Source: Patescibacteria group bacterium
GTDB lineage: Bacteria > Patescibacteriota > Minisyncoccia > Phycocordibacterales > CAIRYW01
Assembly: GCA_040389185.1 (NCBI GenBank)
Contig: JAZKAJ010000019.1
Coordinates: forward strand, 15,523 to 79,522
Direction of reading: 5' to 3'
Length of the DNA: 64,000 bases
A program made the position numbers and the translations under genes. The notes beneath the pieces were generated by a model, which did not search any database, was not told the DNA's origin, and saw nothing but the letters and a program-made list of their open reading frames with translations. Shown in pieces: positions 7,884-59,564 of this stretch; the first letter of the stretch is position 1; each line of letters begins with the position of its first letter.

Positions 7884-7885
7884 AA

Positions 7886-12176: not shown

Positions 12177-12196
12177 TTATTTTTGGTAAATAAATC

Positions 12197-12232
12197 TTGT
12201 AATTATCCACACGGGTGTAGAAATAATTACAA
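12197..12232. promoter_or_regulatory. imperfect 36-bp palindrome ttgtaattat-ccacacgggtgtagaa-ataattacaa; terminator or operator
   Basis: Shares the half-site gtgtagaaa(t)aattaca with the 12735-12766 palindrome. Confidence 0.45.
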
Positions 12233-12252
12233 TATTTATTTATAATAGTATT

Positions 12253-12738: not shown

Positions 12739-12766
12739 TTTTCTACACGGCCGTGTAGAAAATTAC
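12735..12766. terminator. perfect 32-bp palindrome gtaattttctacacgg/ccgtgtagaaaattac followed by a T-rich run
   Basis: Overlaps the stop codon of 12253..12738. Confidence 0.55.
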
Positions 12767-12788
12767 ATTATTTTATTTATTGCTATAG

Positions 12789-13247: not shown

Positions 13248-13266
13248 ATTATTTTTGATTTTTGAT

Positions 13267-13851: not shown

Positions 13852-13892
13852 TTATCGGAGAATTTTTTATCTATTAAAAAGTGTGGATGAAT

Positions 13893-14237
13893 TTATTTGT
13901 GACCAAAAAGAATTGCCCATGCATCCATAGTATCTTTTTCTATTTTTTCTTTAAGTAATCCTATATCAGAAAATTCTTCGTCATCTCGTATCTTTTCTAA
14001 CACCTCAACCTTAATCGTCTTTCCATAAATATTTTTTTTGAAATCAAGGATGTGTGCCTCCAATATCTCCTTTCGTTTTTTTCCCACATAGAGTACCGCA
14101 TCAAGAATCTCCTTACCCAGAACAACTCTCCCAGCATAAATTCCTGGCAATACATTATCTTTATTGTTTATATTCGCTGTCGGGAATCCTAATTTTGTTG
14201 CACTTTTATCTCCTTTGAGTACTTTTCCTTCAGTCAT
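13893..14237 (-). CDS. riboflavin kinase (monofunctional flavokinase domain)
   Basis: LGFPTANI...G.Y...HILDF....YG signature; 114 aa. Confidence 0.7.
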   Translation of the reverse strand: MTEGKVLKGDKSATKLGFPTANINNKDNVLPGIYAGRVVLGKEILDAVLYVGKKRKEILEAHILDFKKNIYGKTIKVEVLEKIRDDEEFSDIGLLKEKIEKDTMDAWAILFGHK

Positions 14238-14251
14238 TTTGGTTAAAACAG

Positions 14252-14791
14252 TTATTTTTTAATACTATTTATTTCTTTCATTAAATGCTCGAGTGATTTC
14301 TGAATACTTTCAACCGTTGCCTTGATTTCTTTATCTCTCTTTTCTTCAACAGTATCCCCTTCTTCAATATCATCAACATCCTCTTGGATTTCGTCGATAT
14401 CTTCTTGAATCTCATCCACGTCTGTTTGAATTTCTCCCACATCAGTCTGGATTTCATCAATGTCCTCTTGAATTTCATCAATGTCCTCTCCGACTTTTAA
14501 GAGATTTTCTGTATTTCTGTTGACTGTAAGCTGAATAAGAATCGCAAGATAGATTGCTTCAAGAGATACTACCGTTGTAAGAAAAAGAAGCATATGGTCT
14601 ATCTCACCAAATATCCACCCGAAAAGAAAGCAGACAATAAAAAATATTGTGTGAAATATTATTGACGCCGGTGAGCCAATCCATTTGGTCACCCGGAGTG
14701 ATAGAGCTTCAAATACAGACTCCGGTTTTGCCTTCTGTTCATTTGGAGTATGTTTGTGACGAGGTTTTGACATTTCCCTATAATACCACAA
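14252..14791 (-). CDS. DUF1003-like membrane protein with an acidic heptad-repeat C-terminal region
   Basis: Two TM helices, then (E/T)D(I/V)DEIQ repeated about six times. Confidence 0.55.
   Translation of the reverse strand: MWYYREMSKPRHKHTPNEQKAKPESVFEALSLRVTKWIGSPASIIFHTIFFIVCFLFGWIFGEIDHMLLFLTTVVSLEAIYLAILIQLTVNRNTENLLKVGEDIDEIQEDIDEIQTDVGEIQTDVDEIQEDIDEIQEDVDDIEEGDTVEEKRDKEIKATVESIQKSLEHLMKEINSIKK
14358..14497. repeat. 21-bp tandem repeat (about 6.5 copies) inside the CDS, encoding EDIDEIQ-type heptads
   Basis: Periodic ttgaat(c/t)tcatc(c/a)a(c/t)gtc units visible in the sequence. Confidence 0.7.
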
Positions 14792-14830
14792 AACATTGCG
14801 AAATATAGGGTTTTAATTTATAATCACAAC

Positions 14831-15091
14831 GTGGAAAATAACGATAAAGAACCAATAAAACCAAGCGCTTTTGAGACAAAAGAACCAATGACAACTGCCG
14901 AACTCGTCTCCTTTGCATCTGAAGTTGGATTTTCTATCGCCCTACCACTTGCCGGATTTGCGGTTGTAGGACACTTACTTGATAACAACTTAGGGACTGG
15001 AAAAACATTCCTCATTGTCGGACTCCTTCTTTCAATCATCTCTACAAGTGTCATTATTTATAATAAAGTTAAAGGATTTTTAATTAAATAG
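14831..15091 (+). CDS. AtpZ/AtpI-like small membrane protein preceding the atp operon
   Basis: Two TM helices, immediately upstream of atpB. Confidence 0.45.
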   Translation: MENNDKEPIKPSAFETKEPMTTAELVSFASEVGFSIALPLAGFAVVGHLLDNNLGTGKTFLIVGLLLSIISTSVIIYNKVKGFLIK

Positions 15092-15220
15092 CCATGAATC
15101 CCGTTAGAAGCCGCGGTCACGATTTAATAGGAAGCTGTAGTATAATATGAAAATGAAGCAAAAAAATTACAAATTTAATCTAAGTAGTAGCGAGATGATC
15201 GCGACCTGCTTCTAAACGGG

Positions 15221-15967
15221 ATGAATATTTCAATTTCAGCAGAACCTGTATTCCACATAGGATCACTTGCATTCACCAACGCATTTATGACAAATCTTCT
15301 TGTGATTTGTATCATTTTGGTTTTAGCTATCACTTTTTTCAAAAAAATAAAAAAGGTTCCAGGACGATTCCAGGCACTTGGAGAGATTGTTATGGAAGAG
15401 TTTATAAAGTTTATGACAACTTTTGCAGGCTCAGAAGCACGAGTTCGACAATTCCTACCCCTCGTTGCAACAATATTTTGTCTCGTACTTGCTTCAAACT
15501 GGATTGGGACAATACCAGGATTTGAATCGATTGGATTTTATGAAATGGAAAACGGACACGAAATATTTGTACCACTCTTTCGAACTGCAAACTCAGATCT
15601 TAATATGACATTAGCACTGGCCATTATTGTGGTGATAGGATCACACATTGTTGGGCTCACAACCCTGAAAGGCAGGCACTTCAAAAAATTCCTTGTAAAC
15701 CCTTTTAAACACCCTATTGGATTCTTTGTTGGAATTCTTGAAATTGTGGGAGAGTTTTCTCGACTTATCTCCCTCACATTCCGACTTTTCGGTAACATTT
15801 TTGCAGGATCAGTTTTGATGCTTATTATGACCACTCTGGCGCCATATATTGTGCCTGTACCTTTTTTGGGACTTGAGATCTTCCTTGGATTCATCCAGGC
15901 GCTCGTATTTGCGGTTCTTGCCATGATGTTTATGGCAAGCTCGATGGAGATGCACACAGAGCATTAA
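15221..15967 (+). CDS. atpB: F0F1 ATP synthase subunit a
   Basis: LTFRLFGNIFAGSVLM conserved Arg-helix. Confidence 0.9.
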   Translation: MNISISAEPVFHIGSLAFTNAFMTNLLVICIILVLAITFFKKIKKVPGRFQALGEIVMEEFIKFMTTFAGSEARVRQFLPLVATIFCLVLASNWIGTIPGFESIGFYEMENGHEIFVPLFRTANSDLNMTLALAIIVVIGSHIVGLTTLKGRHFKKFLVNPFKHPIGFFVGILEIVGEFSRLISLTFRLFGNIFAGSVLMLIMTTLAPYIVPVPFLGLEIFLGFIQALVFAVLAMMFMASSMEMHTEH

Positions 15968-15984
15968 AATTTTAAAATGCGATT

Positions 15985-16017
15985 GCACCGCACCTTTAGG
16001 CGCGGTGCTATTTTTTA
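15985..16017 (+). terminator. rho-independent terminator gcaccgcacc..ggcgcggtgc plus T6
   Basis: GC hairpin and T-run after atpB. Confidence 0.6.
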
Positions 16018-16114
16018 TGCAATAAATATGCCGAATTATCAATCCCCTCTTTCCTTTTGTTTTAGTGTGTTTTTTGGTATTATAGCGTGCATAAAGGGCT
16101 CAAAAGCTCAATAA

Positions 16115-16399
<285 letters not shown>

Positions 16400-16543
16400 T
16401 TAAAACAATTAATTTATAAAATTTCGTTGCATTTCTTAAATTCAGATTTCTCCGTAGTACAATTAGTACAACTACAAAATCCGAATCAGAACTGCTTAGA
16501 AATTTTGTAAATTCTCTTGTTTTAATAGTAATTTTAATTATTT

Positions 16544-17062
16544 ATGGAATCATTTATCCAGTCGTTCGGAATAGAATGGAAGCTACTCATCGCCCAAATG
16601 ATAAACTTTGGGATTTTGGCTTTTATCTTGTTTAAACTTCTCTACAAACCATTGCTTAAGGTTTTGGACGAACGAACAGCAATGGTAAAAGATGCTGCAG
16701 AAAAATCTTCATCTATTGAAGCGAAGCTTGAAGAAATAAAACAACTTGAAGAAAAAGTTCTTGCGGAAGCTCGAGCTAATGGCGCAAAGCTTTTGAAGGA
16801 TGCAGAAATTTCTGCAAAAGAACTTCGAAATAAGCTTGAGATCGATGCTCACAACCATGCTGAAAAAATAGTGAAAGTTGCCGAAGAGAGACTTATGGCA
16901 GATCAAAGTAAGAGAGATGCTGAAATTCGAAAAGAGATAGTCTCTGTTGTTGCAACTGCTATCGAAGCAACTGTTGGAAAGTACTTGGATGCAAATGCAA
17001 AGCAAAAACTTAGCGATGAAGCAACAAAAGAAACTCTTAAGGTAGAATCATTCATAAAATAA
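16544..17062 (+). CDS. atpF: F0F1 ATP synthase subunit b
   Basis: N-terminal TM plus a long charged helix; position in the operon. Confidence 0.8.
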   Translation: MESFIQSFGIEWKLLIAQMINFGILAFILFKLLYKPLLKVLDERTAMVKDAAEKSSSIEAKLEEIKQLEEKVLAEARANGAKLLKDAEISAKELRNKLEIDAHNHAEKIVKVAEERLMADQSKRDAEIRKEIVSVVATAIEATVGKYLDANAKQKLSDEATKETLKVESFIK

Positions 17063-17431
17063 ATGAAATTATCACTCAAACAATATGCGAAAGTTCTAGA
17101 TCAGGCACTCGCCGGGTCTAAAAGTGATGTTGAATCAAAGCAAATTGTAAGTGAATTCATCGAATCTGTTACCAAAGATGCAAAGCTCTCAAAAATAAAC
17201 GAGATACTCGCGCACTTTGGTAACCTCTGGGACACCCGCCACAATGTCTTGAATGCCGAAGTTCAAACTGCCGATGGCGAAGAAATATCTCTTCCACACG
17301 AAATCAAAGGAAAGAAACTTGTTGTAAAGACAAGATCAAACCCGAGTATTATCGGTGGAAGTATCATAAAGATCGGAGATTACATTATCGATAACAGTGT
17401 TTTATCAAAAATAAATACACTTCGTAAGTAA
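17063..17431 (+). CDS. atpH: F0F1 ATP synthase subunit delta (short, 122 aa)
   Basis: Operon position and an OSCP-like C-terminus. Confidence 0.65.
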   Translation: MKLSLKQYAKVLDQALAGSKSDVESKQIVSEFIESVTKDAKLSKINEILAHFGNLWDTRHNVLNAEVQTADGEEISLPHEIKGKKLVVKTRSNPSIIGGSIIKIGDYIIDNSVLSKINTLRK

Positions 17432-24746: not shown

Positions 24747-26028
24747 TTAGAGTTTCGCGATTAATTCCTCAATCTCCATTGTTGTACTTTCCATCCCCAT
24801 TCCACCCGCCACAATTCGTAGTATTGGCTCAGTATTTGACGATCTGATATTAACCCAAAACTCATTAAAGACAAATGTGAGTCCATCTCGCCTATCAATT
24901 CGATTTGCCCTTTTTCCTAAAGATTTTTCGACTTCAGTATAAATCACCGCCATATCTTTGCCTTCTGTTTTGATTTCTTTTGTGGTTACTATATGCTCTC
25001 CAAATTCTTTTTGCCATTCTGAAAGATTCTTTTCCATCTTTGAAATAGAATTCAAGAATGTAATCGCAGCAAATATTCCAGAATCAGCATTAAAGAACTC
25101 TTTAAAATAATAGTGTCCAGAATATTCCGCTCCAAAGTCCGCATTTTGACCTCTGAGCGTCTCTTTGATGAAATATGCACCAATTCTCGATGGTACCATT
25201 TGCTCCTCTGGAACAAGCTTCAAAAGCCTCACAGACTGATATACAAGTTCATCGAGAATGTAGGGTGGATTAAATTCGCTCTTCAGAAGCCCTACTACAA
25301 AACATGCAGGAATCATCTCTCCTCTATCATCCAAAAAGAATGCACGGTCTGCATCAGCATCAAACATTAGACCGAGATCTGCACCATTTTCAAGTATCGC
25401 TTTTTTACACTGTAGACTCGCCCCATCAAGTAATGGATTTGGTCCATGGGCTTTAAAATCAGCGTCAATCTCATCGTTTATAACAATCGCATTCACGTTT
25501 GTCTCTGCAAATAAGTCTTTTATTATCATTCCTGCAGGACCATTGGATACATCAAAAATTACTTTGAGAGGCTTACTCACATTTAACTTTTTCTTCAAAA
25601 AATCTATATAAGTATTTTTATAATCCATTTGTTTCAATAACCTTGAGTAATTCGATACCACTAAAAGGCAGCGCTTTTTCTTTGACCGCTTTGACTCCAC
25701 TGTATTCTTTTGGATTATGAGATGCGGTGATCATTACACCCCCTGAAGCCTTGAAGTGATTAACAAGAAAATAAAACATCGGGGTCGTCGAAAGACCAAC
25801 AGAAATTATTTCAAATTTTTTGTTCAAAGTTTCACCGTACGAAACGATTTCCTTTTCGAGAGTTGCTGTTAGCTCTTCGCCACCATGTCGTCCATCTCGA
25901 GCAACAACGATACTTCCAGATGGAAGAAGTATTGCGAGCGCATGGGCAATTACCGTCACAGCCTCAACATTTACATCTCTAGGATATATTCCACGAACAT
26001 CATAAGCTTTAAATATCTTTTTATTCAT
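24747..26028 (-). pseudogene. phosphoglucosamine/phosphomannomutase (alpha-D-phosphohexomutase) interrupted by a single-nucleotide frameshift near 25620-25650
   Basis: The N-terminal ORF 25618..26028 has TASHNP. The C-terminal ORF 24747..25700 has the domain II-IV pattern. The two overlap in different frames around LLK. Confidence 0.6.
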
Positions 26029-28148: not shown

Positions 28149-28679
28149 TTATTTTAAATAATTAGATAGTAGTTCATATTCTTCCGAACGTGGCTGAAGA
28201 TCTGTTTTTCCATCTTTAACCCATTTTTTGAAAGTGTCCAGGGATATATATTCCACCTTTTCCACTTCACCGTCACTAAATCTGAAATCTTCAATTTTTA
28301 AATCTGTTTTTAGGAGATAAATATCGTTAAATTGATTATCAATAAATGTACCACCATTTAGAATAGAACAGTTGATCACTGTACTTATAAACTTAAGATC
28401 ATCTTTCTCAATAACAATACCTAATTCTTCTTCTGATTCACGAACGGCACTTTCCAAACTTTCTTCTCCTGCAGAAATGTGTCCCGCAACAGATACATCC
28501 CATGTATTTGGATACGAGATCTTATCTTTTGATCGGAGCTGAAAAAGAATTTCATTTTTAAAATTAACGAGCCATACATGCACCGTTCGGTGCCAAAGTC
28601 CCAGAACATGGACCTCATCCTTAGATTTAATCAAACCAGTCTTATTCCCCTTTTCATCTAACACATCTAAGTATTCCAT
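28149..28679 (-). CDS. Nudix hydrolase
   Basis: GHISAGEESLESAVRESEEELG Nudix box. Confidence 0.8.
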   Translation of the reverse strand: MEYLDVLDEKGNKTGLIKSKDEVHVLGLWHRTVHVWLVNFKNEILFQLRSKDKISYPNTWDVSVAGHISAGEESLESAVRESEEELGIVIEKDDLKFISTVINCSILNGGTFIDNQFNDIYLLKTDLKIEDFRFSDGEVEKVEYISLDTFKKWVKDGKTDLQPRSEEYELLSNYLK

Positions 28680-28682: not shown

Positions 28683-29174
28683 TTATCTTTCAATATTAAT
28701 ATATCTGCCAAATGTTGGAATAAAGTCTGACGGAGAATCCTTGTACCAAGTTCTTAATTCCTCAATATTTACCCAGCGAATTTCGGCCACTTCATTATCC
28801 TGTTTTTTGAACGCTTCAATTGACTTATCTACTACAACTAGAAAAGTAGTCGAGAAATACTTGTGACTTGTTTCTCTATACTCATGTGATACAAATTTTA
28901 TATCAGATTCAGAGATAATAAGACCTATCTCTTCTTCTGCCTCCTTTATGATATTAGATTCATATGTCTCCCCCTCCTCCACCGTTCCCGCAACTGCAGG
29001 ACCCCATTTGCCCGGATCTGTCTTTTTACTCATTACCCTTTGGGCAATGAGCATTTCGTTTTTTGAATTAAGTATTACAAGCCCTGATACTCTACCAATT
29101 TCAGATGGAAGTCTTTCGTTTCGAGGTCTGTAGCCGATTATCTCGTCTTTTTCGTTTACAATGATTACGTTCAT
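28683..29174 (-). CDS. Nudix hydrolase (paralog of 29179..29673)
   Basis: AGTVEEGETYESNIIKEAEEEIGL. Confidence 0.8.
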   Translation of the reverse strand: MNVIIVNEKDEIIGYRPRNERLPSEIGRVSGLVILNSKNEMLIAQRVMSKKTDPGKWGPAVAGTVEEGETYESNIIKEAEEEIGLIISESDIKFVSHEYRETSHKYFSTTFLVVVDKSIEAFKKQDNEVAEIRWVNIEELRTWYKDSPSDFIPTFGRYINIER

Positions 29175-29178: not shown

Positions 29179-29673
29179 TTATTTTTTTATATTAACATAA
29201 TACCCAAAAGTTGGAATGAAATCTTCAGGGGTGTTTTTGTACCATTCTCGAAGTTCATTCATATTTACCCAACGAATCTCTTCCACTTCTTCATCCTCCT
29301 TTTTGAATTCCGTTATTGGCTTATCAGCAATAACTGAAAATACAGTTGAGAAGTATTTAAAACTTGTTTCTTGGTATGTATGTAATACAAACTTTAAATC
29401 TGATTCCTTGATACAAAGTCCGATTTCCTCTTGTGCTTCTTTGACTATATTTGATTCATAAGTTTCACCTTCTTCAACTGTACCAGCAACAGCCAGATCC
29501 CACTTACCTGGATCATTCTTTTTGGTCATCACCCTCTTTCCCAGAAGCATTTCATTGTTTGAATTAAAAATCACGAGCCCTGCAACCCTGCTGATATCTG
29601 TGGGTAATTTCTCATTTCGAGGTTTGTATTCAATTATTTCATCCTTTTCATTAACAATGATTACATTAGGCAT
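29179..29673 (-). CDS. Nudix hydrolase (paralog of 28683..29174)
   Basis: AGTVEEGETYESNIVKEAQEEIGL; about 70% identical to its neighbour. Confidence 0.8.
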   Translation of the reverse strand: MPNVIIVNEKDEIIEYKPRNEKLPTDISRVAGLVIFNSNNEMLLGKRVMTKKNDPGKWDLAVAGTVEEGETYESNIVKEAQEEIGLCIKESDLKFVLHTYQETSFKYFSTVFSVIADKPITEFKKEDEEVEEIRWVNMNELREWYKNTPEDFIPTFGYYVNIKK

Positions 29674-30032: not shown

Positions 30033-30536
30033 TTAAATTGACGCTTTATAAAAAGGTTCTGTGCCGTACTTTTCTTTGTATCTCTGCATTATTTCTTGTT
30101 GATAAGTACTAAGCTTGTCTTCTGGAATATTTTCCAGCTTCGTAAAGAAAAGTCTTGAACACTTGTCTGGTTCTTGTATAGTTGGTATGCCAGAAATAAG
30201 TCGGCAAAGATAGATTGGCAAAACCCACCAGAAATTTGGATCTTTTGTACTCGGACGAATTATAACAGTAAACAATGTGTCGATAGACACCTCAATATCT
30301 CCTACTTCTTCTTTTATTTCTCTCTGCAAAGTCTCGTACAAATCAGTCTCACCTTCATCAACAGCACCACCCACTCCTTCGAGTGTTCCCGGTTCACTTC
30401 GTACTTTTTGTCCACGCTCTTGGAGTAAGAGTTCACCATTTTCATTGAAAATAAGAGCAGCCACAGCTACTCCGTAGTTTATTGGAGCGTTCTCTTGCGA
30501 GGATACATAGCTTCTTAATTCATCTATAAATTGCAT
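30033..30536 (-). CDS. Nudix hydrolase
   Basis: GGAVDEGETDLYETLQREIKEEVG. Confidence 0.8.
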   Translation of the reverse strand: MQFIDELRSYVSSQENAPINYGVAVAALIFNENGELLLQERGQKVRSEPGTLEGVGGAVDEGETDLYETLQREIKEEVGDIEVSIDTLFTVIIRPSTKDPNFWWVLPIYLCRLISGIPTIQEPDKCSRLFFTKLENIPEDKLSTYQQEIMQRYKEKYGTEPFYKASI

Positions 30537-47698: not shown

Positions 47699-48559
47699 TT
47701 AATCAAGGAAATTGAAGAATTTGAGTTTATCTGTCACCACTTTTTGGACTGCTTCAAGAGATGGTTTGAGCATTTTGTATGGCGCCACTTCCCCTGGATT
47801 TTCTTCTACAACTTTCACAAGTGCGTCATGGAAGGCAACGCGAATTTCTGTATTGATGTGTACGATCGCCACTCCATTTTTGATTGCATCCTGAATGTCT
47901 TCTTTGCTGTTGCCTGATGCTCCATGAAGTACGAGAGGAACGTTTGTTGCTTTTGAAATCTCCCCTACTCGTTCGATATTGAGCCGAGGATCAGGAATAT
48001 CTTTGAGCATTCCGTGGATATTTCCTACTGCAGGAGCAAATAAATCAACTCCAGTCTCGCGGACGAATTTTTGTGCATCCGCAACACTTGTGAGTTCTAC
48101 TCCATCTGGCACTGCATCAAGAATCTTTGAAGATTGTCCGATGTATCCAAGCTCTGCTTCAACCAGCACTTCTCGTCCACAATTCTTTGCATATTCAACA
48201 CACTGTTTTGCAATGATGATGTTTTCATCAAGTGACAACTTCGCTCCATCAAAGATCACAGAATCATACCCTGCATCAATCGCTTCTTTTACTCGGTCGA
48301 ACGAATATGTGTGATCAGCATTGAGAAATATTGGATAATCATTTTCTTCTCGAAGAGATTTTACGAGAGCCACCGCTTCGTGGACACCAACGAAATCTCG
48401 TTCTCCTTCTGAAACTCCGATAATAACGGGAAGTTTAAGTGCCTTTGCTGCGTTGAATATCGCGTGAAGTGCCTCCAGGTTTGAAATATTAAAATGACCT
48501 ATTGCCACACCCTTTTCTTTCGCTTCAATAATGTATTGTTTTAATGATTTTATTTGCAT
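47699..48559 (-). CDS. fba: class II fructose-bisphosphate aldolase family
   Basis: GHFNISNLE...PVIIGVSEGE, HGASG zinc-ligand pattern; 286 aa. Confidence 0.7.
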   Translation of the reverse strand: MQIKSLKQYIIEAKEKGVAIGHFNISNLEALHAIFNAAKALKLPVIIGVSEGERDFVGVHEAVALVKSLREENDYPIFLNADHTYSFDRVKEAIDAGYDSVIFDGAKLSLDENIIIAKQCVEYAKNCGREVLVEAELGYIGQSSKILDAVPDGVELTSVADAQKFVRETGVDLFAPAVGNIHGMLKDIPDPRLNIERVGEISKATNVPLVLHGASGNSKEDIQDAIKNGVAIVHINTEIRVAFHDALVKVVEENPGEVAPYKMLKPSLEAVQKVVTDKLKFFNFLD

Positions 48560-48808: not shown

Positions 48809-49810
48809 ATGATATTTTTTAAACCACAATACGACATCGTCGCCATCGGAGACACCGTCACCGATGCTTTTATTAAACTTAAAGAGGCACACCTTACTTG
48901 CAAACTTAACAGTCATGAATGTGAGATTTGTATGAAATACGGAGACAAGATCCCATATGACTTCGTTGAAGTCTGTCCTGCTGTAGGAAATAGTGCAAAT
49001 GCTGCAGTTTCATTTAGCCGACTTGGGCTCAAATCAGCAATTATCACAGACCTCGGCAATGATACAAATGGTACGGAAGCGGTAGAGACTTTCAAAGCCA
49101 ATAATGTTGGAACAGATTATGTAAAACTCCACAACGGCAAAAAAACCAACTACCACTATGTGCTCTGGTATGATGTTGACCGAACTATTCTCATCAAACA
49201 CGAAACATTTGAAAGACATATTCCTGCAATGAAAACTCCAAAGTGGGTCTATCTTTCATCCCTCGGACAAGACAGCCTCCCGTTCCATAAAGAAGTAGCA
49301 CAATATCTCAAAACAAATCCTGAGATCAAACTCGCATTCCAACCTGGGACATTCCAAATGCAATTCGGCACCGAAGAACTTAAAGATATTTATGCGCGAA
49401 CAGAAGTCTCGATCTGCAACCTTGAAGAGTCACAAAGAATTCTAAAGACTGAAGAAAAAGATATCAAAGTGTTACTCGCGGGTATGCGGAAGCTTGGACC
49501 AAATATTGTACTCATTACAGATGGCCCAAACGGCGCATATGCATCGTATGATGACAAGAATCTTTATATGCCTCTCTATCCCGATACAAAGCCTCCATAC
49601 GAGAGAACAGGGGCCGGAGATGCTTTTGCATCAACATTTGTTGCCGCAATCGCACAGGGCAAGACCGTGGAAGAAGCACTTACTTGGGCACCAATCAATT
49701 CCATGTCAGTTGTTCAAAGTATCGGTGCACAAAAAGGCCTTCTTGATCAAAGATCTATACAATTCTTTTTGGATAAAGCAAAAGAGGACTATAAGGTGAA
49801 GAGTATATAA
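48809..49810 (+). CDS. PfkB-family sugar kinase
   Basis: GAGDAFASTFVAAI signature; 333 aa. Confidence 0.7.
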   Translation: MIFFKPQYDIVAIGDTVTDAFIKLKEAHLTCKLNSHECEICMKYGDKIPYDFVEVCPAVGNSANAAVSFSRLGLKSAIITDLGNDTNGTEAVETFKANNVGTDYVKLHNGKKTNYHYVLWYDVDRTILIKHETFERHIPAMKTPKWVYLSSLGQDSLPFHKEVAQYLKTNPEIKLAFQPGTFQMQFGTEELKDIYARTEVSICNLEESQRILKTEEKDIKVLLAGMRKLGPNIVLITDGPNGAYASYDDKNLYMPLYPDTKPPYERTGAGDAFASTFVAAIAQGKTVEEALTWAPINSMSVVQSIGAQKGLLDQRSIQFFLDKAKEDYKVKSI

Positions 49811-49815: not shown

Positions 49816-50226
49816 ATGTCGCAAGAAGATTTGATAATATTAAATCAGAATTCGGGAGCAGAAAATTATAATATACTGCTCAATGTGGCAGACGATAAAC
49901 TAGTCAAACTAAAAAGAGAACTTGTTACTAGTCATTTTCCAAAATTTTTACCTGCGTTTGAGATACAGAATCAAATTGAAATGTTGGATTCTCAAAAAAC
50001 ACAACTTCCACGTGATGAATCTTATGATTTTAAGATTTCACAAATTGAATCGGCACTAACTCAATTGGTATCAATTCAACATCAGATGTATGCCGAAGCG
50101 GGTGTAGATATATTGAATCCAGGTAACAGCTCTGAATATTTAGATTATCTTGCTGCCACGAAAGGAATTGACCGTAGATTTTTGAAAACACTCCCTCCTA
50201 GTGAGGAAGAAATTAAACAAAATTAA
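49816..50226 (+). CDS. hypothetical protein (136 aa)
   Basis: ORF only. Confidence 0.4.
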   Translation: MSQEDLIILNQNSGAENYNILLNVADDKLVKLKRELVTSHFPKFLPAFEIQNQIEMLDSQKTQLPRDESYDFKISQIESALTQLVSIQHQMYAEAGVDILNPGNSSEYLDYLAATKGIDRRFLKTLPPSEEEIKQN

Positions 50227-50235
50227 TATAAATTT

Positions 50236-50646
50236 ATGTGCCATCGACTGCCCGAATTTGGAGAACCTTCAGACGAAACAAACCCTTTAGGAAGATTAAC
50301 TCCAGACCTTATGCATAAAGCTGAGTTAGGTGCATTATTGAGCAGATTTGCTGGAATACACGAATTTACCCAAACATTCCCTCATCTCTCTTTATCAAAA
50401 GAAAATATTGAAGCCCAGCAAAATTTTGTATTACAAAATTACAAACTTGATATTGAAATGCTTCAAAAACTACAGGGAAAAGAAGTGTTAGACAATATTG
50501 AATTACAATCAATAGAATCCCTAGAGAAAGATATGGATGATCTAAGACAAAAAGGAAAATGGCTGCAACAAGCACATAATGAATTTGATATTTTCAATGC
50601 AGCAAAAGAAAGTATAGAATCGCATTATGGAAACAACAGACACTAA
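50236..50646 (+). CDS. hypothetical protein (136 aa)
   Basis: ORF only. Confidence 0.4.
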   Translation: MCHRLPEFGEPSDETNPLGRLTPDLMHKAELGALLSRFAGIHEFTQTFPHLSLSKENIEAQQNFVLQNYKLDIEMLQKLQGKEVLDNIELQSIESLEKDMDDLRQKGKWLQQAHNEFDIFNAAKESIESHYGNNRH

Positions 50647-50864
50647 CTAAACTTCACAAATCTCGGCACCATTTCCCCATTCACTTCCACTATCTCAGTA
50701 AAATTACTCAAAGGTCTCGCCCATATTTTGGCGAGATCGTTTTCATATAATGTTTCGTAAATCACGAGATCTTCAAGAGTCTCACTGTCTTTTGCAATAG
50801 CAAGTATTTTGTATGTACCGCCCTTCTTGCTGTGTTTATAGATATCTCCAACTTTGATTTCCAT
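50643..50864 (-). CDS. DUF1653 domain protein
   Basis: YKHSKKGGTYKIL..A..SE....VIYE.LY......WARP..NF pattern. Confidence 0.6.
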   Translation of the reverse strand: MEIKVGDIYKHSKKGGTYKILAIAKDSETLEDLVIYETLYENDLAKIWARPLSNFTEIVEVNGEMVPRFVKFS

Positions 50865-50970: not shown

Positions 50971-51117
50971 TTATTTCTTTGGTTCTATTTTCTTATAACA
51001 CTGTTTACAAATATGAAATTTCTTTACCTCCGACTTTTTGTTTGGAGGACTAAGTAGTATCCCACCAAAATCAGTTAATACTTTCTTGCAGTAATCACAT
51101 TTAGGAGATATAGACAT
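50971..51117 (-). CDS. small zinc-ribbon protein (48 aa; CDYC...CKQC)
   Basis: Translated by hand; two CxxC pairs. Confidence 0.35.
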   Translation of the reverse strand: MSISPKCDYCKKVLTDFGGILLSPPNKKSEVKKFHICKQCYKKIEPKK

Positions 51118-51164: not shown

Positions 51165-52160
51165 TTATTTTCTACTAATTACTTTTATTACAGCTTTTTC
51201 TATAAATTTCTCTGTCATCTCATAGTGCTCTAAAAGTTGTTCGGGAGTCCCTGACTGGCCAAATAGATTCTTCACACCCACAAATTCAATCGGTACAATA
51301 TAATTCTGTGCGAGACACTCTGCCACGGCTGATCCCATTCCACCAGCGATCTGATGCTCTTCAACAGTGACGACAGCTCCGGCTCTATGCGCCACTTCTA
51401 CAATAGTCTGCACATCAAACGGTTTAATCGTTGCAAGATTAACCACAATTGATCCAACATCCTTCTTCTCCAATTCTGAAGCGACAGCAAGAGCCTTGTG
51501 TACGAGCGCACCTGTCGCAATAATCGCAACTTTTGGTTTCACACTTTCAAAAAATATTTGAGCTTTACCTACTATAAATGGCGTATCCGAAGTTGTGATG
51601 ATCGGAGTCTTTTCTCGTGCAAGTCTCAAATACACAGGAGTTTTAATATCGTCTTTAAGTATTGCTTGCGTTGCTTTTTTGGCTTCAATCGCATCACAGG
51701 GAGATATGACTGTCATGTTTGGAATTACACGTGTGATGGCAATATCTTCAATCGCTTGATGTGTTCCACCATCAGGTCCAACAGAGACTCCGGCATGCGA
51801 ACCTGCAATAATAACCTTCCGGTTGTTGTAACAAATAGTGGTACGGATCTGCTCCCAATTTCTTCCTGGAGAAAACATTGCATATGAAGAGATTACAGGC
51901 ACCTTGCCCATTGCAGCCATTCCAGACGCAACAGATGCAAGGTTTTGTTCTGCAACTCCAATCTCCACAAATCGATTCGGGAATTTATTTTTGAAATCAA
52001 GCATCTTTGTAGATTCTGTAAGATCTGCACAAAGAGCAACGATTCGTTCATCTTTTTCTGCAGACAATACCAATCCTTCTCCAAAACCATTTCTAATTGG
52101 AGTCTGTTCAACATCTTTGTCGAAAATTTTACTATTTAGTTTTTGATTTGGATTTAACAT
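51165..52160 (-). CDS. transketolase, C-terminal subunit (pyrimidine-binding and C-terminal domains)
   Basis: Split-transketolase architecture; 331 aa. Confidence 0.8.
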   Translation of the reverse strand: MLNPNQKLNSKIFDKDVEQTPIRNGFGEGLVLSAEKDERIVALCADLTESTKMLDFKNKFPNRFVEIGVAEQNLASVASGMAAMGKVPVISSYAMFSPGRNWEQIRTTICYNNRKVIIAGSHAGVSVGPDGGTHQAIEDIAITRVIPNMTVISPCDAIEAKKATQAILKDDIKTPVYLRLAREKTPIITTSDTPFIVGKAQIFFESVKPKVAIIATGALVHKALAVASELEKKDVGSIVVNLATIKPFDVQTIVEVAHRAGAVVTVEEHQIAGGMGSAVAECLAQNYIVPIEFVGVKNLFGQSGTPEQLLEHYEMTEKFIEKAVIKVISRK

Positions 52161-52179: not shown

Positions 52180-52560
52180 CTACTTATTCTTCTCTCGGTA
52201 TTCCTTTTTTATTTTCCAATAAAGTTCTGTTCCGGGGGTTGCTCCGCTTTCTTTAAAAAGTTTTGCGGGATATTTTTTATTTACTTTTTTAAGCTTTTCT
52301 TTTGTTGCCTTCTCAAGATCAAATCCAAGCCTATCCGCTATATCTAGGCAATAGATGAATACATCAGCAACTTCTGATTGGATTTCTAAGAATTTACCTT
52401 TGTCCATTCTCACTTCCTCAGGCGTTGGACTGCCCCACTGAAAATGTTCAAGAAGCTCAGATGCTTCAATAGATAAAGCTTTTGCCAAATCGGCTGGAGG
52501 TAATTTGTCCCACCCTCTTGCTTTGAGATATGTATGAATTGTATTCTGAAGCTTAAACAT
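52180..52560 (-). CDS. MazG-like nucleotide pyrophosphohydrolase
   Basis: EASELLEHF...EVADVFIYCLDIADRLGFDLE EExxE/D motif set. Confidence 0.7.
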   Translation of the reverse strand: MFKLQNTIHTYLKARGWDKLPPADLAKALSIEASELLEHFQWGSPTPEEVRMDKGKFLEIQSEVADVFIYCLDIADRLGFDLEKATKEKLKKVNKKYPAKLFKESGATPGTELYWKIKKEYREKNK

Positions 52561-52570
52561 TTCCTTATAT

Positions 52571-53179
52571 TTATCGATTCTTATTTGTCCAAATTGAATT
52601 CCACCAATCAGACGGATTCATATCAAATATTGTCTTGCCTAATTTTTTTGCTGATTCAGTCTTTAGATATTGTATTTGAGCACATCCTTTCTTTTTATCC
52701 TTCCCTTTGCCTTCGAGCCATATTTTTGCCTCTTTGTTGCCTTGCCAATCGTATTCTTTGAGAAGGAGCACCTGATCAAGCATATCAGCATCTTTTGCAA
52801 TGACAGATTCCTTCGAATCTCTCTTTTCATATTCTTTGACCAAGTCACTGAAGTCAGAGATCGGCAGATTATCGAGCTGATCCTTTCTGATCTCTTCATC
52901 ATAGATCTTTACATATCGCTTGTGCACCCAGTTATGATCACCACTGCGCACTTCTGCTATGTCGTGCAAAAGACACATCATCACCACTTTCATCGGATCA
53001 ACACCTTCTTCTTTGGCAAGAAAATATCCAATCATCGCCACACGATACGAGTGAGTTGCAATGTTATCTGTCATATCATCAGAAAGAAGCGTCTGCCTGT
53101 GCATTCGAGGAAGCTTTCGCATAGTTCCTACTTCGTAGAGAAATTCGGCTATCTTTTTGTTTGTATTATCTTTTTTCAT
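52571..53179 (-). CDS. HD-domain phosphohydrolase (YfbR-like 5'-deoxynucleotidase family)
   Basis: H...HD...E (LLHDIAEVRSGD) motifs. The start was moved to an internal Met to avoid overlap with the upstream Nudix gene. Confidence 0.65.
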   Translation of the reverse strand: MKKDNTNKKIAEFLYEVGTMRKLPRMHRQTLLSDDMTDNIATHSYRVAMIGYFLAKEEGVDPMKVVMMCLLHDIAEVRSGDHNWVHKRYVKIYDEEIRKDQLDNLPISDFSDLVKEYEKRDSKESVIAKDADMLDQVLLLKEYDWQGNKEAKIWLEGKGKDKKKGCAQIQYLKTESAKKLGKTIFDMNPSDWWNSIWTNKNR

Positions 53180-53190
53180 AAAAATCAAAA

Positions 53191-53655
53191 CTATTCTGAT
53201 AATTCTTTCAAGGCTTCTATTGCATAAAATTTTACATTGGGCACTAAGTCCATCTTTTCTAGATCTTCGAGCGTTGCCCAGACACAATCATCACTCCGGT
53301 CGCCTTCATATTGTGCATTAATTGTATCACTTTTTGACCTTGCAAAATAAACGAGCGGGATGTGCTCGTGAGTTGGACTTATTCTATTTCTGCCCATATA
53401 TCTTGGACCAATAAGCTCATGATAGAGTGGATCGTTTGTTTGATATTCTCCTTTGTTTCCTACAAGCTCAATTTCGAGCCCAACCTCTTCTCGTACCTCA
53501 CGGATTGCTGCCTGATTTGGGTCTTCGTCAAGTTCAATATGTCCCCCAACAGAAAGCCAAATACCAAGCTTGTCATGTTTCCGTAAAAGCACTTTGTTTT
53601 TGTGAACAATGAATGTCTCTACTGTAAAATCGATTTTCTCGTGAATATGAGGCAT
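53191..53655 (-). CDS. Nudix hydrolase
   Basis: GGHIELDEDPNQAAIREVREEVGL. Confidence 0.8.
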   Translation of the reverse strand: MPHIHEKIDFTVETFIVHKNKVLLRKHDKLGIWLSVGGHIELDEDPNQAAIREVREEVGLEIELVGNKGEYQTNDPLYHELIGPRYMGRNRISPTHEHIPLVYFARSKSDTINAQYEGDRSDDCVWATLEDLEKMDLVPNVKFYAIEALKELSE

Positions 53656-53690
53656 AGAGGTAGAATTTTTAATTTTATAATTTTAAATTT

Positions 53691-54059
53691 TTAAGAATTA
53701 AGGATAATTTCGTCTTCTGGTTTCCAGGCTGGATCTACAATACAAATAAATTCCAAATCTATATTATCAATATTTTTAATTTTTTGTTCTGCAAATGGTG
53801 GAATATAAATGATATCACCCTCTGAAACTTCTTTTTCCTCACCATCAATATACATCAGACCCTTTCCTTTCAAAATATAATAAACTTCAGAAGTTTTTAA
53901 TTTATGCGCCAATGAAATATTCCCCGGAGCAATCGTTGCGTGAGCAAAACTATATCTCAGATCTAACTCTTTATCTTTTAGTGGATTAAAAAGCTCTCGA
54001 AGCTTAGTACCATCTCCAGCAACAAATTCACTACAATTTTTAAGAGATCTTATAAACAT
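53691..54059 (-). CDS. cupin-domain protein
   Basis: G...Y.DGEEKEVSEGDIIYIP two-motif cupin pattern. Confidence 0.6.
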   Translation of the reverse strand: MFIRSLKNCSEFVAGDGTKLRELFNPLKDKELDLRYSFAHATIAPGNISLAHKLKTSEVYYILKGKGLMYIDGEEKEVSEGDIIYIPPFAEQKIKNIDNIDLEFICIVDPAWKPEDEIILNS

Positions 54060-54061: not shown

Positions 54062-54928
54062 TTATTCGTGTTCGGCCCTAATCTTTCCTCCAAGCGTTCG
54101 AAGTTCTTTGAGAGCCATAATTCCCTCTTCTTTGTTATGTATATATCCATGGAATTCATATTTGCCTTCAAATTCCTTCACACCTTTTCCTGGAACAGTC
54201 TTTGCAATAATTGCAGATGGTTTATCTGTTACTGTGTAGGCTTTTTCTATTGCATCTACAATTTCTTTTATATTATTTCCATCGATCGTTTGCACATTAA
54301 ATCCAAACGATTCGATTCGCATATCAAGTGGTGAGAGCGGCATGATATCATCTGTAAATCCATCAATCTGAATATTATTTCTATCAGTGATTACAATAAG
54401 ATTGTGTAGTTTTTCTTTGCCCGCAAGCATCATAGCCTCCCAGTTTTGCCCTTCATCGAGTTCTCCATCTCCCGTGAGACAGAAGAATTTCTTTGTTGAT
54501 GTCTTGTTATCAATCCTCTCTGCAATAGCCATTCCTACAGCCTGTGAGAGCCCACTACCAAGTGGTCCCGAGCTATTCTCGAGTATTGGCAAGAACTCAC
54601 GATGTGGATGTCCCTGGAGTCTTGAGCCGAACTTCCGTAGAGTCTTTAGTTCTTCAAGTGGAAAATATCCGGAATGAGCAAGTGCCGCATAATACACTGG
54701 ACAAATATGCCCGTTTGAGAGAATTAGTCGATCACGATCATCCCACTCTGGATTCTTTGGATCATGCTTCAGTATGTGAAAAAAGAGAGTTGAGAAAACA
54801 TCTGACATACCAAGTGGTCCCGCAGTATGACCCGATCCTGCAGAGAGAAGCATTTCGATAATAGACTCGCGAATATTATTCGCTTTTGCTTTCAGGAACT
54901 CTAATTTTTCTTCAGTCAATTTTTCCAT
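54062..54928 (-). CDS. transketolase, N-terminal subunit (TPP-binding)
   Basis: GHTAGPLGMSDV, GDGELDEGQNWEAMMLA motifs; 288 aa. Confidence 0.85.
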   Translation of the reverse strand: MEKLTEEKLEFLKAKANNIRESIIEMLLSAGSGHTAGPLGMSDVFSTLFFHILKHDPKNPEWDDRDRLILSNGHICPVYYAALAHSGYFPLEELKTLRKFGSRLQGHPHREFLPILENSSGPLGSGLSQAVGMAIAERIDNKTSTKKFFCLTGDGELDEGQNWEAMMLAGKEKLHNLIVITDRNNIQIDGFTDDIMPLSPLDMRIESFGFNVQTIDGNNIKEIVDAIEKAYTVTDKPSAIIAKTVPGKGVKEFEGKYEFHGYIHNKEEGIMALKELRTLGGKIRAEHE

Positions 54929-54970: not shown

Positions 54971-55660
54971 TTAAATCGAATCCTTTACCTCTCGTATTGC
55001 GTCAACCGGGCTCACACTATTTAATATATATGAACCCACAACAAATCTAGTTGCCCCAGCATCATAAGCATCACCTACACTTTCTGGAGTTACTCCACCA
55101 TCAATAGCTATTGGCATCGTAGGAAGCTCGGTTTTGAGCCACTTTATTTTTGCGAGGACTCTTTCATCAAATTTTTGTCCTTGGAATCCAAGGTGTTCTA
55201 TCGCAACAAACATAATAAAGTCTGCGTATGGAAGCAATTCCTGAACTCTTTCAACACCCGTTTGAAGCTTAAATGCAATTCCTACTTGGACCAATCCTTC
55301 TGTTCGAAGCTGATCAAGAAGCAGTCTGTCTTCATCAAGATCGATTGTTTCTGCATGAATGATGATTTTGCTTGCACCAAGCTTAATAATATCCGGAATA
55401 AGAGCAAATGGGTTTTTAACCATCAAGTGAAATTCAAAATCAAAATCCTCCCAGAAAGGCATTCCTCTTTCTTCATTCAATATCTCCTCATAATTAAGGT
55501 CGGGTTTGCCGAGTGGCCATGTAGCCTCTTGAGTAAAAAGACCATCGCAAATATCGATATGTACTGTGTCAGATACACCTTTAATAATCTCGAGTTTGGT
55601 CTCAAGGTCTTTGAAGTATTTTGGGATTATAGCTGGAATAATTTCAATTGATTCGTCCAT
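54971..55660 (-). CDS. rpe: ribulose-phosphate 3-epimerase family
   Basis: HIDICDG, HLMV, HAE, IDGG pattern; 229 aa. Confidence 0.6.
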   Translation of the reverse strand: MDESIEIIPAIIPKYFKDLETKLEIIKGVSDTVHIDICDGLFTQEATWPLGKPDLNYEEILNEERGMPFWEDFDFEFHLMVKNPFALIPDIIKLGASKIIIHAETIDLDEDRLLLDQLRTEGLVQVGIAFKLQTGVERVQELLPYADFIMFVAIEHLGFQGQKFDERVLAKIKWLKTELPTMPIAIDGGVTPESVGDAYDAGATRFVVGSYILNSVSPVDAIREVKDSI

Positions 55661-55668: not shown

Positions 55669-56118
55669 TTAATTATTTAAATTTTCTATTTTATCTATTC
55701 GTCTCTGATGTCGTTCGTCTCCAGAGAATGGAGTGTCTATCCAGAGCTTGAGAGCTTGTTTTGCCTCATCAATACTCACAAATCGAGCACCAAGAGACAG
55801 TACATTAGCATCATTATGCTCTCGTGACAATTTTACAATGTCCATGTTTCCTCCATACCAAAGTGCCGCACGCACATTCGGAAATCTGTTAGCCACAATT
55901 GCCTCTCCTTGTCCTGAGCCCCCGATCACAACTCCTTTTGCACTCGGGTCCTGACTAACCTCGCGCGCAGCAAGTGAGATAAAGTCTGGATAGTCATCAA
56001 GCGCTTCAAATGTAGTGTTACCTTTATCTATTGCGTCAAATCCGAGTGTTTTTACATATTCAACAAGCGCGTTTTTGAATTCAAAGCCTGCATGATCACT
56101 TGCGAAAAAAATTTTCAT
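55669..56118 (-). CDS. rpiB: ribose-5-phosphate isomerase B
   Basis: MKIFFASDHAGFEFKN N-terminus; 149 aa. Confidence 0.8.
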   Translation of the reverse strand: MKIFFASDHAGFEFKNALVEYVKTLGFDAIDKGNTTFEALDDYPDFISLAAREVSQDPSAKGVVIGGSGQGEAIVANRFPNVRAALWYGGNMDIVKLSREHNDANVLSLGARFVSIDEAKQALKLWIDTPFSGDERHQRRIDKIENLNN

Positions 56119-56130: not shown

Positions 56131-57195
56131 TTATACGTAACGCGGAGTTTCTGGACCGCTATCTTTGACTGGAGTTTGCCCTGCTTTTAACACATGGAGA
56201 ATAAGTGAGTGTGTATACCCAATCTCATTGTCATACCACGCGCACACCTTAACCAGGTTATCATCCACCACTCGAGTAAGACCGAGGTCCGCAATAGATG
56301 CATATACTGACCCTACAATATCTGAAGAGACAAGCTCATCTTTTGTTATAGCAAACGTTTCTTTCCATCTCGCTTCGTTTGCGGCAGTTGTAAGAATCTG
56401 ATTTATTTCTTCTACAGTAGTTTTTCTTTTTGTGAGAATTGTTATATCTGCAATTGATCCTGCGACAACAGGTACACGCATTGAGATACCATCAAACTTC
56501 CCAATAAGCTGAGGTAATGCTTTCGCTACAGCGAGAGCTGCACCTGTTGATGTTGGCACAATATTTTGTGCCGCTGCGCGACCTTCTTTCCAATCCTTTG
56601 GTTTTGGACCATCAACAAGTGACTGACTTGCAGTATATGCATGAACAGTTGAGAGAATTGCTTTTTCAATACCGATTGCTTCATCAATAATTGCCATCAC
56701 AGGACTTGATGCATTTGTAGTACAAGAGGCATTTGACGTAATAGGAGAATCTCCAAACTGATTTTCGTTGATACCCATAAGAATTGTTGGAACCTTTGGA
56801 CTTCCCGCTTCATCTTTTGCAGGAGCTGAGATCACCACACGTTTTGCTCCAGCTGTAATATGACCCGAAGCTTTTGTGTAGCTTGTGAAAAATCCGGTTG
56901 ATTCAACAACCACATCAATTCCAAGGTCTTTCCAAGGCAAGCTTGCAGGATCTTTTTCACTGAAATACTGTACTTTTTTACCAGCAATCGTCAGCGACTT
57001 TTTGTCAGCCGCAACTTCAATAGCAAAACCACTTTTTCCATACGCACTATCAAACTTCATTAAGTAGGCAATGTTATCGATATCACCCAAGTCATTGAGT
57101 GCCACAACTTCAATATCAGGCACCCCAAGGGCTACTTTATAAAAAGCTCTTCCAATTCTACCTGCGCCATTAATGGCAACTTTTATTTTATTCAT
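56131..57195 (-). CDS. gap: glyceraldehyde-3-phosphate dehydrogenase
   Basis: INGAGRIGR, SNASCTTN active-site region. Confidence 0.85.
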   Translation of the reverse strand: MNKIKVAINGAGRIGRAFYKVALGVPDIEVVALNDLGDIDNIAYLMKFDSAYGKSGFAIEVAADKKSLTIAGKKVQYFSEKDPASLPWKDLGIDVVVESTGFFTSYTKASGHITAGAKRVVISAPAKDEAGSPKVPTILMGINENQFGDSPITSNASCTTNASSPVMAIIDEAIGIEKAILSTVHAYTASQSLVDGPKPKDWKEGRAAAQNIVPTSTGAALAVAKALPQLIGKFDGISMRVPVVAGSIADITILTKRKTTVEEINQILTTAANEARWKETFAITKDELVSSDIVGSVYASIADLGLTRVVDDNLVKVCAWYDNEIGYTHSLILHVLKAGQTPVKDSGPETPRYV

Positions 57196-59348: not shown

Positions 59349-59564
59349 ATGACCCCCTGTGACTACCATGGCTGCGAAAGTGAAGGAACTCATACCATTC
59401 TTTGTATGGGAAGTTACTGCGAGACTCACTTCGACTTAATCAAACGGCGAGAAAACGATCATGATGATGACGACGATGACAATGACGATGATTTCGAAGA
59501 TTCCGAAGAAGACAATGATGATGAGGAAGATGAGGAGGGCGAGGATGATGATGAAGGAAAATAA
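59349..59564 (+). CDS. small Cys/His zinc-binding protein with a poly-acidic (D/E) tail
   Basis: CDYHGCE...CMGSYCETH followed by about 40 residues of D/E. Confidence 0.5.
   Translation: MTPCDYHGCESEGTHTILCMGSYCETHFDLIKRRENDHDDDDDDNDDDFEDSEEDNDDEEDEEGEDDDEGK

Follow-up and report, generated by a model that had tools for sequence, protein, structure and literature searches.

The uncultivated bacteria of the Candidate Phyla Radiation (CPR)/Paceibacterota have a minimal metabolism, and their use of pentoses and of a pentose-phosphate pathway (PPP) without a recognisable phosphofructokinase (PFK) or transaldolase is a standing question (PMC7143001). CPR bacteria have been described as scavengers without nucleotide synthesis; many of their genomes have no recognisable PFK, fructose-1,6-bisphosphatase (FBPase) or transaldolase, and carry transketolase (tkt), rpe and rpi together with an aldolase gene in one operon (PMC7143001). 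One described CPR route for nucleotide ribose into central carbon metabolism is the archaeal/CPR nucleoside pathway with form II/III or form III RuBisCO (PMC6389311). In yeast, a nucleotidase-initiated ribose salvage requires transketolase (PMC4039369), and the same source cites a sedoheptulose-bisphosphate bypass in E. coli that runs via a kinase and an aldolase. Among HD-domain phosphohydrolases, YfbR is specific for deoxynucleoside monophosphates (dNMPs; PMC8475336).

Here, a 64,000-nt stretch of an ultrasmall CPR/Paceibacterota genome (referred to in full as the window) was analysed, in which four small genes encoding a cupin, a Nudix hydrolase, a YfbR-like HD phosphohydrolase and a DCTPP1-like MazG (together, the island) lie between tktN and tktC, the genes for the two subunits of a split transketolase, all on the minus strand. 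An earlier note on this DNA had read the island as a coherent salvage module coupling nucleotide degradation to ribose-5-phosphate recycling. The reading favoured here, with moderate confidence, is that enzymes of nucleotide-pool sanitation and turnover are co-expressed with a constitutive sugar-phosphate operon, and that the island is an accreted set in an insertion-tolerant slot.

Gene calls and operon structure

Families were called by Pfam gathering scores, which tktN, tktC and all four island genes passed. The N-terminal, thiamine diphosphate-binding subunit is encoded at 54062–54928 (tktN, minus strand; PF00456, 208 bits), and the C-terminal subunit, with pyrimidine-binding and C-terminal domains, at 51165–52160 (tktC, minus strand; PF02779, 132 bits; PF02780, 93 bits). 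From tktN to tktC, the intervening minus-strand genes encode a small cupin of 122 aa (53691–54059; PF07883 Cupin_2, 48 bits, cut-off 27.2), a Nudix hydrolase of 154 aa (53191–53655; PF00293, 56.2 bits, cut-off 21.1), an HD_3/YfbR-like HD phosphohydrolase of 202 aa (52571–53179; PF13023, 86 bits, cut-off 22.5; PF12917, 42.2 bits, cut-off 25.9), and, directly upstream of tktC, a MazG-like all-alpha nucleoside triphosphate (NTP) pyrophosphohydrolase of 126 aa (52180–52560; PF12643, 51.7 bits, cut-off 27). Four co-oriented genes between the transketolase halves had been reported in the earlier note, and their coordinates, shared orientation and families were borne out, with only the start of the HD gene corrected. 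The mechanically called open reading frame (ORF) begins at a TTG at 53287 and would overlap the Nudix gene by 97 nt; the ATG at 53179 was adopted because orthologues are 197–207 aa long and cover 95–100% of the resulting 202-aa query.

The spacers from tktN to tktC measure 2, 35, 11, 10 and 19 nt, the cupin gene starting 2 nt past the tktN stop codon, and those from gap to tktC all fall within 2–42 nt. The genes are co-oriented, and no terminator-like site was found in the spacers, such matches occurring only inside coding sequence. Given the short spacers and the lack of a spacer terminator, co-transcription of the island with tkt, rpe, rpiB and gap is the natural reading, which we infer from gene arrangement. 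A 245-nt spacer lies upstream of gap, which is likely the first gene of the operon.

Variability of the tktN–tktC junction in Paceibacterota

A tktN scan of 185,579 species genomes yielded 80 Paceibacterota loci (L001–L080), comprising the nearest species representatives only; the tktN–tktC distance was measured in 75 of these, and ORFs in the gap were called mechanically. The backbone gatB–gap–rpiB–rpe–tktN–tktC–…–fba was kept throughout. According to the earlier note, split tkt halves are normally adjacent, which held for 34 of the 75 loci (gap of at most 60 nt) and failed for 36, in which more than 200 nt, and up to 6.3 kb in L001, separate the two genes. The synteny check suggested in the earlier note gave a mixed answer: the two genes adjoin each other in roughly one relative out of two, yet HD and MazG genes occur repeatedly in the slot.

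The slot contents are heterogeneous. Of 52 gap ORFs, 46 are co-oriented with tkt, and the tenants include DUF1653 genes in 6 loci, three Nudix ORFs, two MazG-like genes, one classical MazG gene and one HD gene. Others encode small membrane proteins (several cases), the RelB and YafQ proteins of a toxin–antitoxin pair, a four-helix 23S-IVP protein, a protein with a tRNA-binding domain, a methyltransferase, and an Ig-domain surface protein of 1277 aa. In L040 (10959–11871), the RelB/YafQ pair and the classical MazG gene (PF03819) occur together in the slot. Among the accessory genes of the cluster, DUF1653 is the most frequent; it may precede or follow tktC and has 17 matches in the 80 loci, of which the 6 in the slot belong to L014, L018, L032, L034, L035 and L045. 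In the Parcubacteria locus L164, DUF1653 (5761–5988) stands in a MazG-like/YgjV/DUF1653/cupin cluster away from tkt. This distribution hints that DUF1653, MazG-like, cupin and similar genes may form a guild of small genes travelling together.

Other junctions of the same operon served as controls. Insertions of more than 200 nt were present at gatB–gap in 69% of loci, gap–rpiB in 56%, tktN–tktC in 48%, rpe–tktN in 15% and rpiB–rpe in 7%, from which it follows that the tktN–tktC junction tolerates insertion as readily as junctions of unrelated genes do and is not uniquely a nucleotide site. In a single-seed jackhmmer search of 1.36 Mb of related loci, all Nudix, HD and MazG matches fell in the tkt slot.

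For the island as a whole, the comparison was extended to 81 other slots, consisting of the 75 measured loci and the slots of L082, L167, L169, L170, L174 and L176. None of the 81 holds all four genes, and the best overlap is that of L001, with a Nudix gene and a divergent MazG. Mobile-element insertion was considered and rejected, as only short repeats at chance level were present at island and gene boundaries and no integrase was found at the slot. A defence island was likewise rejected: PADLOC returned no match for MazG, HD or cupin, and the sole match of the Nudix protein, at 34 bits, was to PDC-S07, a candidate family.

Turnover against the closest relative

L001, a Ca. Taylorbacteria metagenome-assembled genome, is the closest tkt locus, with a tktN product 91% identical and backbone proteins 87–99% identical at the amino acid level. 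Backbone DNA is 79–86% identical between the two; homology ends exactly at the tktN stop codon and returns only over the Nudix gene. Past this gene it is lost once more, to be regained precisely where tktC starts. The Nudix gene is the only island gene common to both (92% amino acid identity). L001 has neither cupin nor HD, and its MazG counterpart is only 59% identical; the position of the cupin is taken by a giant surface protein, and that of HD and MazG by a PP2C-like ORF, the 59%-identical MazG and a second Nudix gene. This pattern of breaks means that the four-gene set is not conserved even in the nearest genome and, together with its absence from the other slots, speaks against the coherent salvage module of the earlier note. 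The L001 slot (10927–17131) amounts to a 6.3-kb insertion, including the 1277-aa protein with Ig and peptidoglycan-binding domains, between the subunit genes of one enzyme.

HD phosphohydrolase

The relatives of the HD protein in the PDB are AF1432, HDDC2 and YfbR. In an alignment of 12 orthologues, H43, H72, D73, E76, D81 and D132 are invariant, leaving the metal-binding set H...HD...D intact, and the HDxxE(x4)D spacing (E76, D81) is kept; this pattern matches the catalytic Glu and substrate-binding Asp of YfbR. The YfbR equivalog NF003009 scored 34.5 bits against a cut-off of 122, and the protein should not be filed as YfbR itself.

Orthologues were found in more than 1000 Paceibacterota clusters at E ≤ 1e-20, with identities of 61–89% among the 120 matches listed, a conservation across the phylum comparable to that of transketolase itself. 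Gene context was examined for 10 orthologues, picked solely for sufficiently long contigs. Five of these 10 lie exactly between tktN and tktC (L167, L169, L170, L174 and L176), and an HD gene is also present in the slots of L048 and the window. In L170 and L176, tktN and HD overlap by 8 nt, and HD overlaps tktC by 4 nt in the former and ends 3 nt from it in the latter. Of the five copies outside the slot, two adjoin Nudix genes, one adjoins a LigT-like gene, and the last two come after a malic-enzyme gene, in one case with the gap–rpiB–rpe cluster 1.8 kb farther downstream. By neighbour joining, the 12 HD sequences form one orthologous group in which copies inside and outside the slot are interleaved, which means at least two moves of HD into or out of the slot. 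On this comparative evidence, the YfbR-like HD gene appears to be an old and repeatedly retained tenant of the tktN–tktC slot.

In L168, the HD orthologue is closely followed by a bAvd-like gene beside a reverse transcriptase gene (6754–8132) in what looks like a diversity-generating retroelement, and a further Nudix gene follows the pair at 8270–8887.

MazG-like protein

The PDB matches to the MazG-like protein were an archaeal pyrophosphatase (4qgp, E = 4.6e-14) and mouse dCTP pyrophosphatase 1/RS21-C6 (phmmer, E = 7e-8). The acidic residues of the EXXE...EXXD motif are kept, with E32, E35, E38, E59, E63 and D66 invariant in a three-sequence alignment. Four of the six closest orthologues (49–61% identity) are in the slot (window, L001, L004 and L082), the slot orthologues of the window protein in L001, L004 and L082 being 50–61% identical to it; the other two adjoin the genes for endonuclease III (nth) and tRNA-dihydrouridine synthase (dus). 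Outside CPR, no linkage of the family to tkt was seen in metagenome contexts, in which 77 of 80 loci were non-CPR-like, mostly on higher-GC contigs, so that only the three closest of the 80 are informative. The DCTPP1-like MazG is a recurrent tenant of the slot, less often so than HD.

Nudix hydrolase and cupin

The Nudix box GX5EX7REUXEEXGU, as read from the translation, is intact at G38–L60 (G38...E44...R52 E53...E56 E57...G59 L60). No substrate subfamily was assigned, as none of 20 NCBIfam matches reached its cut-off (best NudB, 38 bits versus 103), and the best PDB match, 3f6a, is itself an uncharacterised Nudix protein. A multi-seed Nudix profile found 7 genes in the 80 loci, each at a junction of the PPP cluster that varies between loci; three of the 7 are in the slot, which makes up 1.9% of the bases, and two of these three belong to L001. 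Five further Nudix genes are present in the window, all on the minus strand (4488–4880, 28149–28679, 28683–29174, 29179–29673 and 30033–30536), giving six in 64 kb, including a tandem paralogue pair, which is unusually dense for a small genome. At such a density, a Nudix gene in the slot is unremarkable and carries little weight. Nudix enrichment was accordingly downgraded as evidence, on account of the six genes in the window and of the low number in the 80 loci, with two of the three in-slot cases coming from one genome.

The cupin belongs to a family of proteins of about 120 aa that are 60–72% identical across very distant phyla, spanning Patescibacteria, Elusimicrobia, Zixibacteria, cyanobacteria, Bacteroidales and Diapherotrites (DPANN) archaea (P0002–P0120). 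His52, Glu58 and Gln92 are invariant, and the C-terminus reads CIVDPAW..EDE. Of the canonical cupin ligands (HxH...E and the His of motif 2), the protein retains H52 and E58 and lacks two His: a variable residue stands at the second position of motif 1, and Gln92 takes the place of the motif-2 His. The phosphomannose isomerase equivalog GMP_PMI scored 30.6 bits against a cut-off of 373. With a GC content of 0.31 and a third-position GC (GC3) of 0.19, the gene stands out in composition from the rest of the operon, and none of the 80 tkt-anchored loci, L001 among them, carries it. Elsewhere, the family occurs in unrelated contexts, including one Parcubacteria genome in which it accompanies MazG-like and DUF1653 genes away from tkt. 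The cupin is not a nucleotide enzyme. Judged by distribution and composition, its gene is lineage-specific and was probably acquired recently; the family is strongly constrained and probably horizontally mobile.

PfkB-family kinase and neighbouring genes

A PfkB-family sugar or nucleoside kinase is encoded on the plus strand at 48809–49810 of the window (PF00294, 105 bits). Between tktC and fba, a PfkB gene was present in 50 of 50 loci among L001–L080, on the opposite strand in 49 of them, and one was also present in L167, L169, L170, L174 and L176. The best NCBIfam match was ribokinase, below threshold at 86.5 bits (cut-off 300), and assignment of a substrate by NCBIfam or PDB was abandoned, all matches being far below cut-off or uninformative. 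The enzyme could be a ribose-entry kinase, or a substitute for PFK or a sedoheptulose-7-phosphate (S7P) kinase in PFK-less CPR bacteria.

The remaining genes belong to the region at 47.7–58.9 kb, in which a minus-strand run of gatB, gap, rpiB, rpe, tktN, the island, tktC, a zinc-ribbon ORF and DUF1653 is followed by the plus-strand PfkB gene and then a class II aldolase gene. The identities of rpe, rpiB and gap upstream of tktN, as named in the earlier note, agree with the Pfam and NCBIfam scores: type I glyceraldehyde-3-phosphate dehydrogenase (GAPDH; gap, 56131–57195, minus strand; TIGR01534, 368 bits, cut-off 367; PF00044; PF02800), ribose-5-phosphate isomerase B (rpiB, 55669–56118, minus strand; PF02502, 141 bits; NF004051, 153 bits, cut-off 135) and a member of the ribulose-phosphate 3-epimerase family (rpe, 54971–55660, minus strand; PF00834, 106 bits). 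Directly downstream of tktC, a 48-aa CxxC...CxxC zinc-ribbon ORF was recognised by reading the sequence (50971–51117, minus strand; DNA 82.5% conserved in L001), followed by the DUF1653 gene (50643–50864, minus strand; PF07866, 72.5 bits). The conserved supercluster ends with the class II fructose/ketose-bisphosphate aldolase gene (fba, 47699–48559, minus strand; TIGR00167, 237 bits, cut-off 216).

Two consecutive plus-strand ORFs of 136 aa without a Pfam match occupy 49816–50646, a region about 420 nt shorter in L001 and thus a further variable spot beside the cluster. A plus-strand ORF of 71 aa at 59349–59564 combines an N-terminus rich in Cys and His with an extremely acidic tail rich in Asp and Glu. 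Farther away, the phosphomannomutase/phosphoglucomutase gene (24747–26028, minus strand) seemingly consists of two overlapping ORFs (25618–26028 and 24747–25700), which could reflect a frameshift, a sequencing error or a genuine split.

Interpretation

Under the favoured reading, the conserved Paceibacterota operon gap–rpiB–rpe–tktN...tktC, followed by pfkB and fba, would be the backbone, and the tktN–tktC junction a long-lived, insertion-tolerant slot lodging small co-oriented genes that are probably transcribed with the operon. The four island genes would be an accreted, lineage-specific set and not a conserved module, in which the Nudix gene is common only to the nearest relative and the cupin would be a recent newcomer without relation to the others. 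The most likely target of the three hydrolases is the nucleotide pool: MazG and Nudix would convert (deoxy)NTPs or nucleoside diphosphates linked to another moiety (NDP-X) to (deoxy)nucleoside monophosphates, and HD would convert the latter to nucleosides and phosphate. Their position in the operon would provide constitutive, stoichiometric expression of pool sanitation and turnover enzymes. The earlier note's reading of nucleotide hydrolases in a PPP operon stands as far as gene families, co-orientation and the recurrence of HD and MazG in the slot are concerned, and finds no support as regards the coherence of the four genes.

Several points weigh against this reading. The HD gene is kept in the slot, with overlapping stop and start codons, in loci where the tktN product is only 61–68% identical; such deep retention is more than one would expect if the slot were permissive and nothing else, and may point to a specific functional tie to transketolase, which the favoured reading does not spell out. 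The substrates are taken from distant characterised relatives (34.5 bits versus 122 for NF003009), and the sample of HD contexts is small (n = 10).

A dedicated salvage route is considered unlikely. In such a route, MazG and Nudix would make nucleoside monophosphates, HD would make nucleosides, and ribose-5-phosphate would feed the co-transcribed rpiB, rpe and transketolase steps and pass on to GAPDH. The recurrence of HD and MazG in the slot fits it, as do the location of 7 of 7 Nudix genes in PPP-cluster junctions (3 of them in the 1.9% of bases formed by the slot), the universal presence beside tktC of a PfkB kinase that matches ribokinase best, although below threshold, the dependence of the yeast nucleotidase-initiated pathway on transketolase (PMC4039369), and the scavenging lifestyle and lack of nucleotide synthesis ascribed to CPR bacteria (PMC7143001). 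It is at odds with the composition of the slots, all four genes being together in 0 of 81 others and two being missing from the nearest relative, with the half of HD orthologues located elsewhere, and with a cupin that has no nucleotide link. The 308 accessory ORFs of the cluster include no recurrent gene for a nucleoside phosphorylase or hydrolase, a phosphopentomutase or DeoC; among window ORFs that were annotated or read, short of an exhaustive scan, none of these enzymes was recognised. Deoxyribose is not a transketolase substrate, and the characterised relatives are deoxy-specific, the MazG-like protein resembling dCTP pyrophosphatase 1 and YfbR acting on dNMPs (PMC8475336). The link to ribose-5-phosphate recycling drawn in the earlier note was therefore not sustained: because no nucleoside-cleaving enzyme or pentomutase recurs, and because YfbR and DCTPP1 act on deoxynucleotides, a coupling of the island to this recycling, and any ribose flux into the PPP, can at most be inferred.

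Pure hitch-hiking is judged improbable. It would treat the slot as neutral ground for genes that happen to insert into a strongly expressed operon, with tenants unrelated to transketolase or to each other and a recurrence owed to shared ancestry only. The heterogeneous slot content and the equal permissiveness of gap–rpiB and gatB–gap are what it would lead one to expect; HD genes also stand beside Nudix, LigT-like and malic-enzyme genes, MazG genes also beside nth or dus, and both a repeat footprint and a defence signature are absent. It accounts poorly for the persistence of HD: slot content turns over fast at 87–99% backbone identity, yet HD is in the slot where tktN is only 61–68% identical, its junctions overlap or are 3 nt apart, and the interleaved tree implies repeated gain or retention.

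A very improbable alternative is that HD is a sugar-bisphosphatase, acting for example on sedoheptulose-1,7- or fructose-1,6-bisphosphate and closing, with PfkB and the class II aldolase, a transaldolase- and PFK-independent link between the PPP and glycolysis. Each characterised HD_3/YfbR-like relative that was found is either a nucleotidase or a phosphohydrolase of nucleotide analogues (PMC8475336). The HDxxE(x4)D spacing is as in YfbR, and half of the orthologues lie away from PPP genes. Set against this are the CPR genomes that have tkt, rpe, rpi and aldolase in an operon and no recognisable PFK, FBPase or transaldolase (PMC7143001), the E. coli kinase-and-aldolase bypass, as cited in PMC4039369, and an HD protein as conserved as transketolase and nested between its subunit genes. 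If true, it would explain how central carbon metabolism proceeds in these CPR bacteria despite their 'missing' enzymes. Cofactor or metabolite damage control for transketolase (for example by Nudix or HD acting on damaged thiamine diphosphate analogues), or an anti-phage nucleotide-depletion island, is hardly credible, for while Nudix enzymes hydrolysing damaged thiamine diphosphates exist in other organisms, the fast turnover and divergent MazG replacement in L001 resemble defence-island dynamics, and the Nudix protein weakly matches PDC-S07, PADLOC was empty for MazG, HD and cupin, the slot bears no sign of an integrase or mobile element, and nothing ties the window Nudix subfamily specifically to thiamine.

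Returning to pool sanitation and turnover in an insertion-tolerant slot, the tkt gap is a hot spot of gain and loss of small genes even between near-identical genomes, and the locus is a warning that a gene cluster from one genome should not be read as a functional module. The conserved HD gene that stays in or returns to the slot, and the linked PfkB gene, provide two candidate enzymes for missing or scavenging steps.

Comparison with known systems

The enzyme families are known, and the gene order is a modest variant that is apparently undescribed; the same appears to apply to the recurrent nesting of a conserved HD gene, and less often of a DCTPP1-like MazG gene, between split tkt genes. 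Literature searches on transketolase with HD domain and Patescibacteria, and on split transketolase, found nothing, and no description of non-adjacent split-transketolase halves with accessory genes between them was found in the searchable literature.

As in the yeast salvage through the nucleotidase Phm8, nucleoside cleavage and the non-oxidative PPP, a nucleotidase would start a route needing transketolase (PMC4039369); in yeast, however, the genes are unlinked and the nucleotidase is of the haloacid dehalogenase (HAD) family, and the CPR cluster has no identified nucleoside-cleaving or ribose-activating steps. The nucleoside (pentose-bisphosphate) pathway similarly feeds nucleotide ribose into CPR central carbon metabolism (PMC6389311), but its chemistry is phosphorolysis, whereas hydrolysis is proposed here, and no AMP phosphorylase, ribose-1,5-bisphosphate (R15P) isomerase or RuBisCO was seen in the cluster or in the inspected window ORFs.

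Like DCTPP1/RS21-C6 and 4qgp, the MazG-like protein is a predicted single-domain, all-alpha NTP pyrophosphohydrolase of about 120 aa with conserved acidic residues (PF12643), although it is only distantly similar to characterised members. The HD protein shares with E. coli YfbR and human HDDC2, which are 5'-(deoxy)nucleotidases of the HD_3 family, the matches to PF13023 and PF12917, the H...HD...D set and the HDxxE(x4)D spacing, and differs from them in an invariant, lineage-specific GDHNW motif and in a C-terminal WW motif; its position between tkt subunit genes has no E. coli counterpart. As in other split transketolase operons, Transketolase_N and Transket_pyr plus Transketolase_C are on separate co-oriented ORFs in a pentose-phosphate cluster, whereas here, and in about half of the related Paceibacterota, one to five accessory genes part the two halves.

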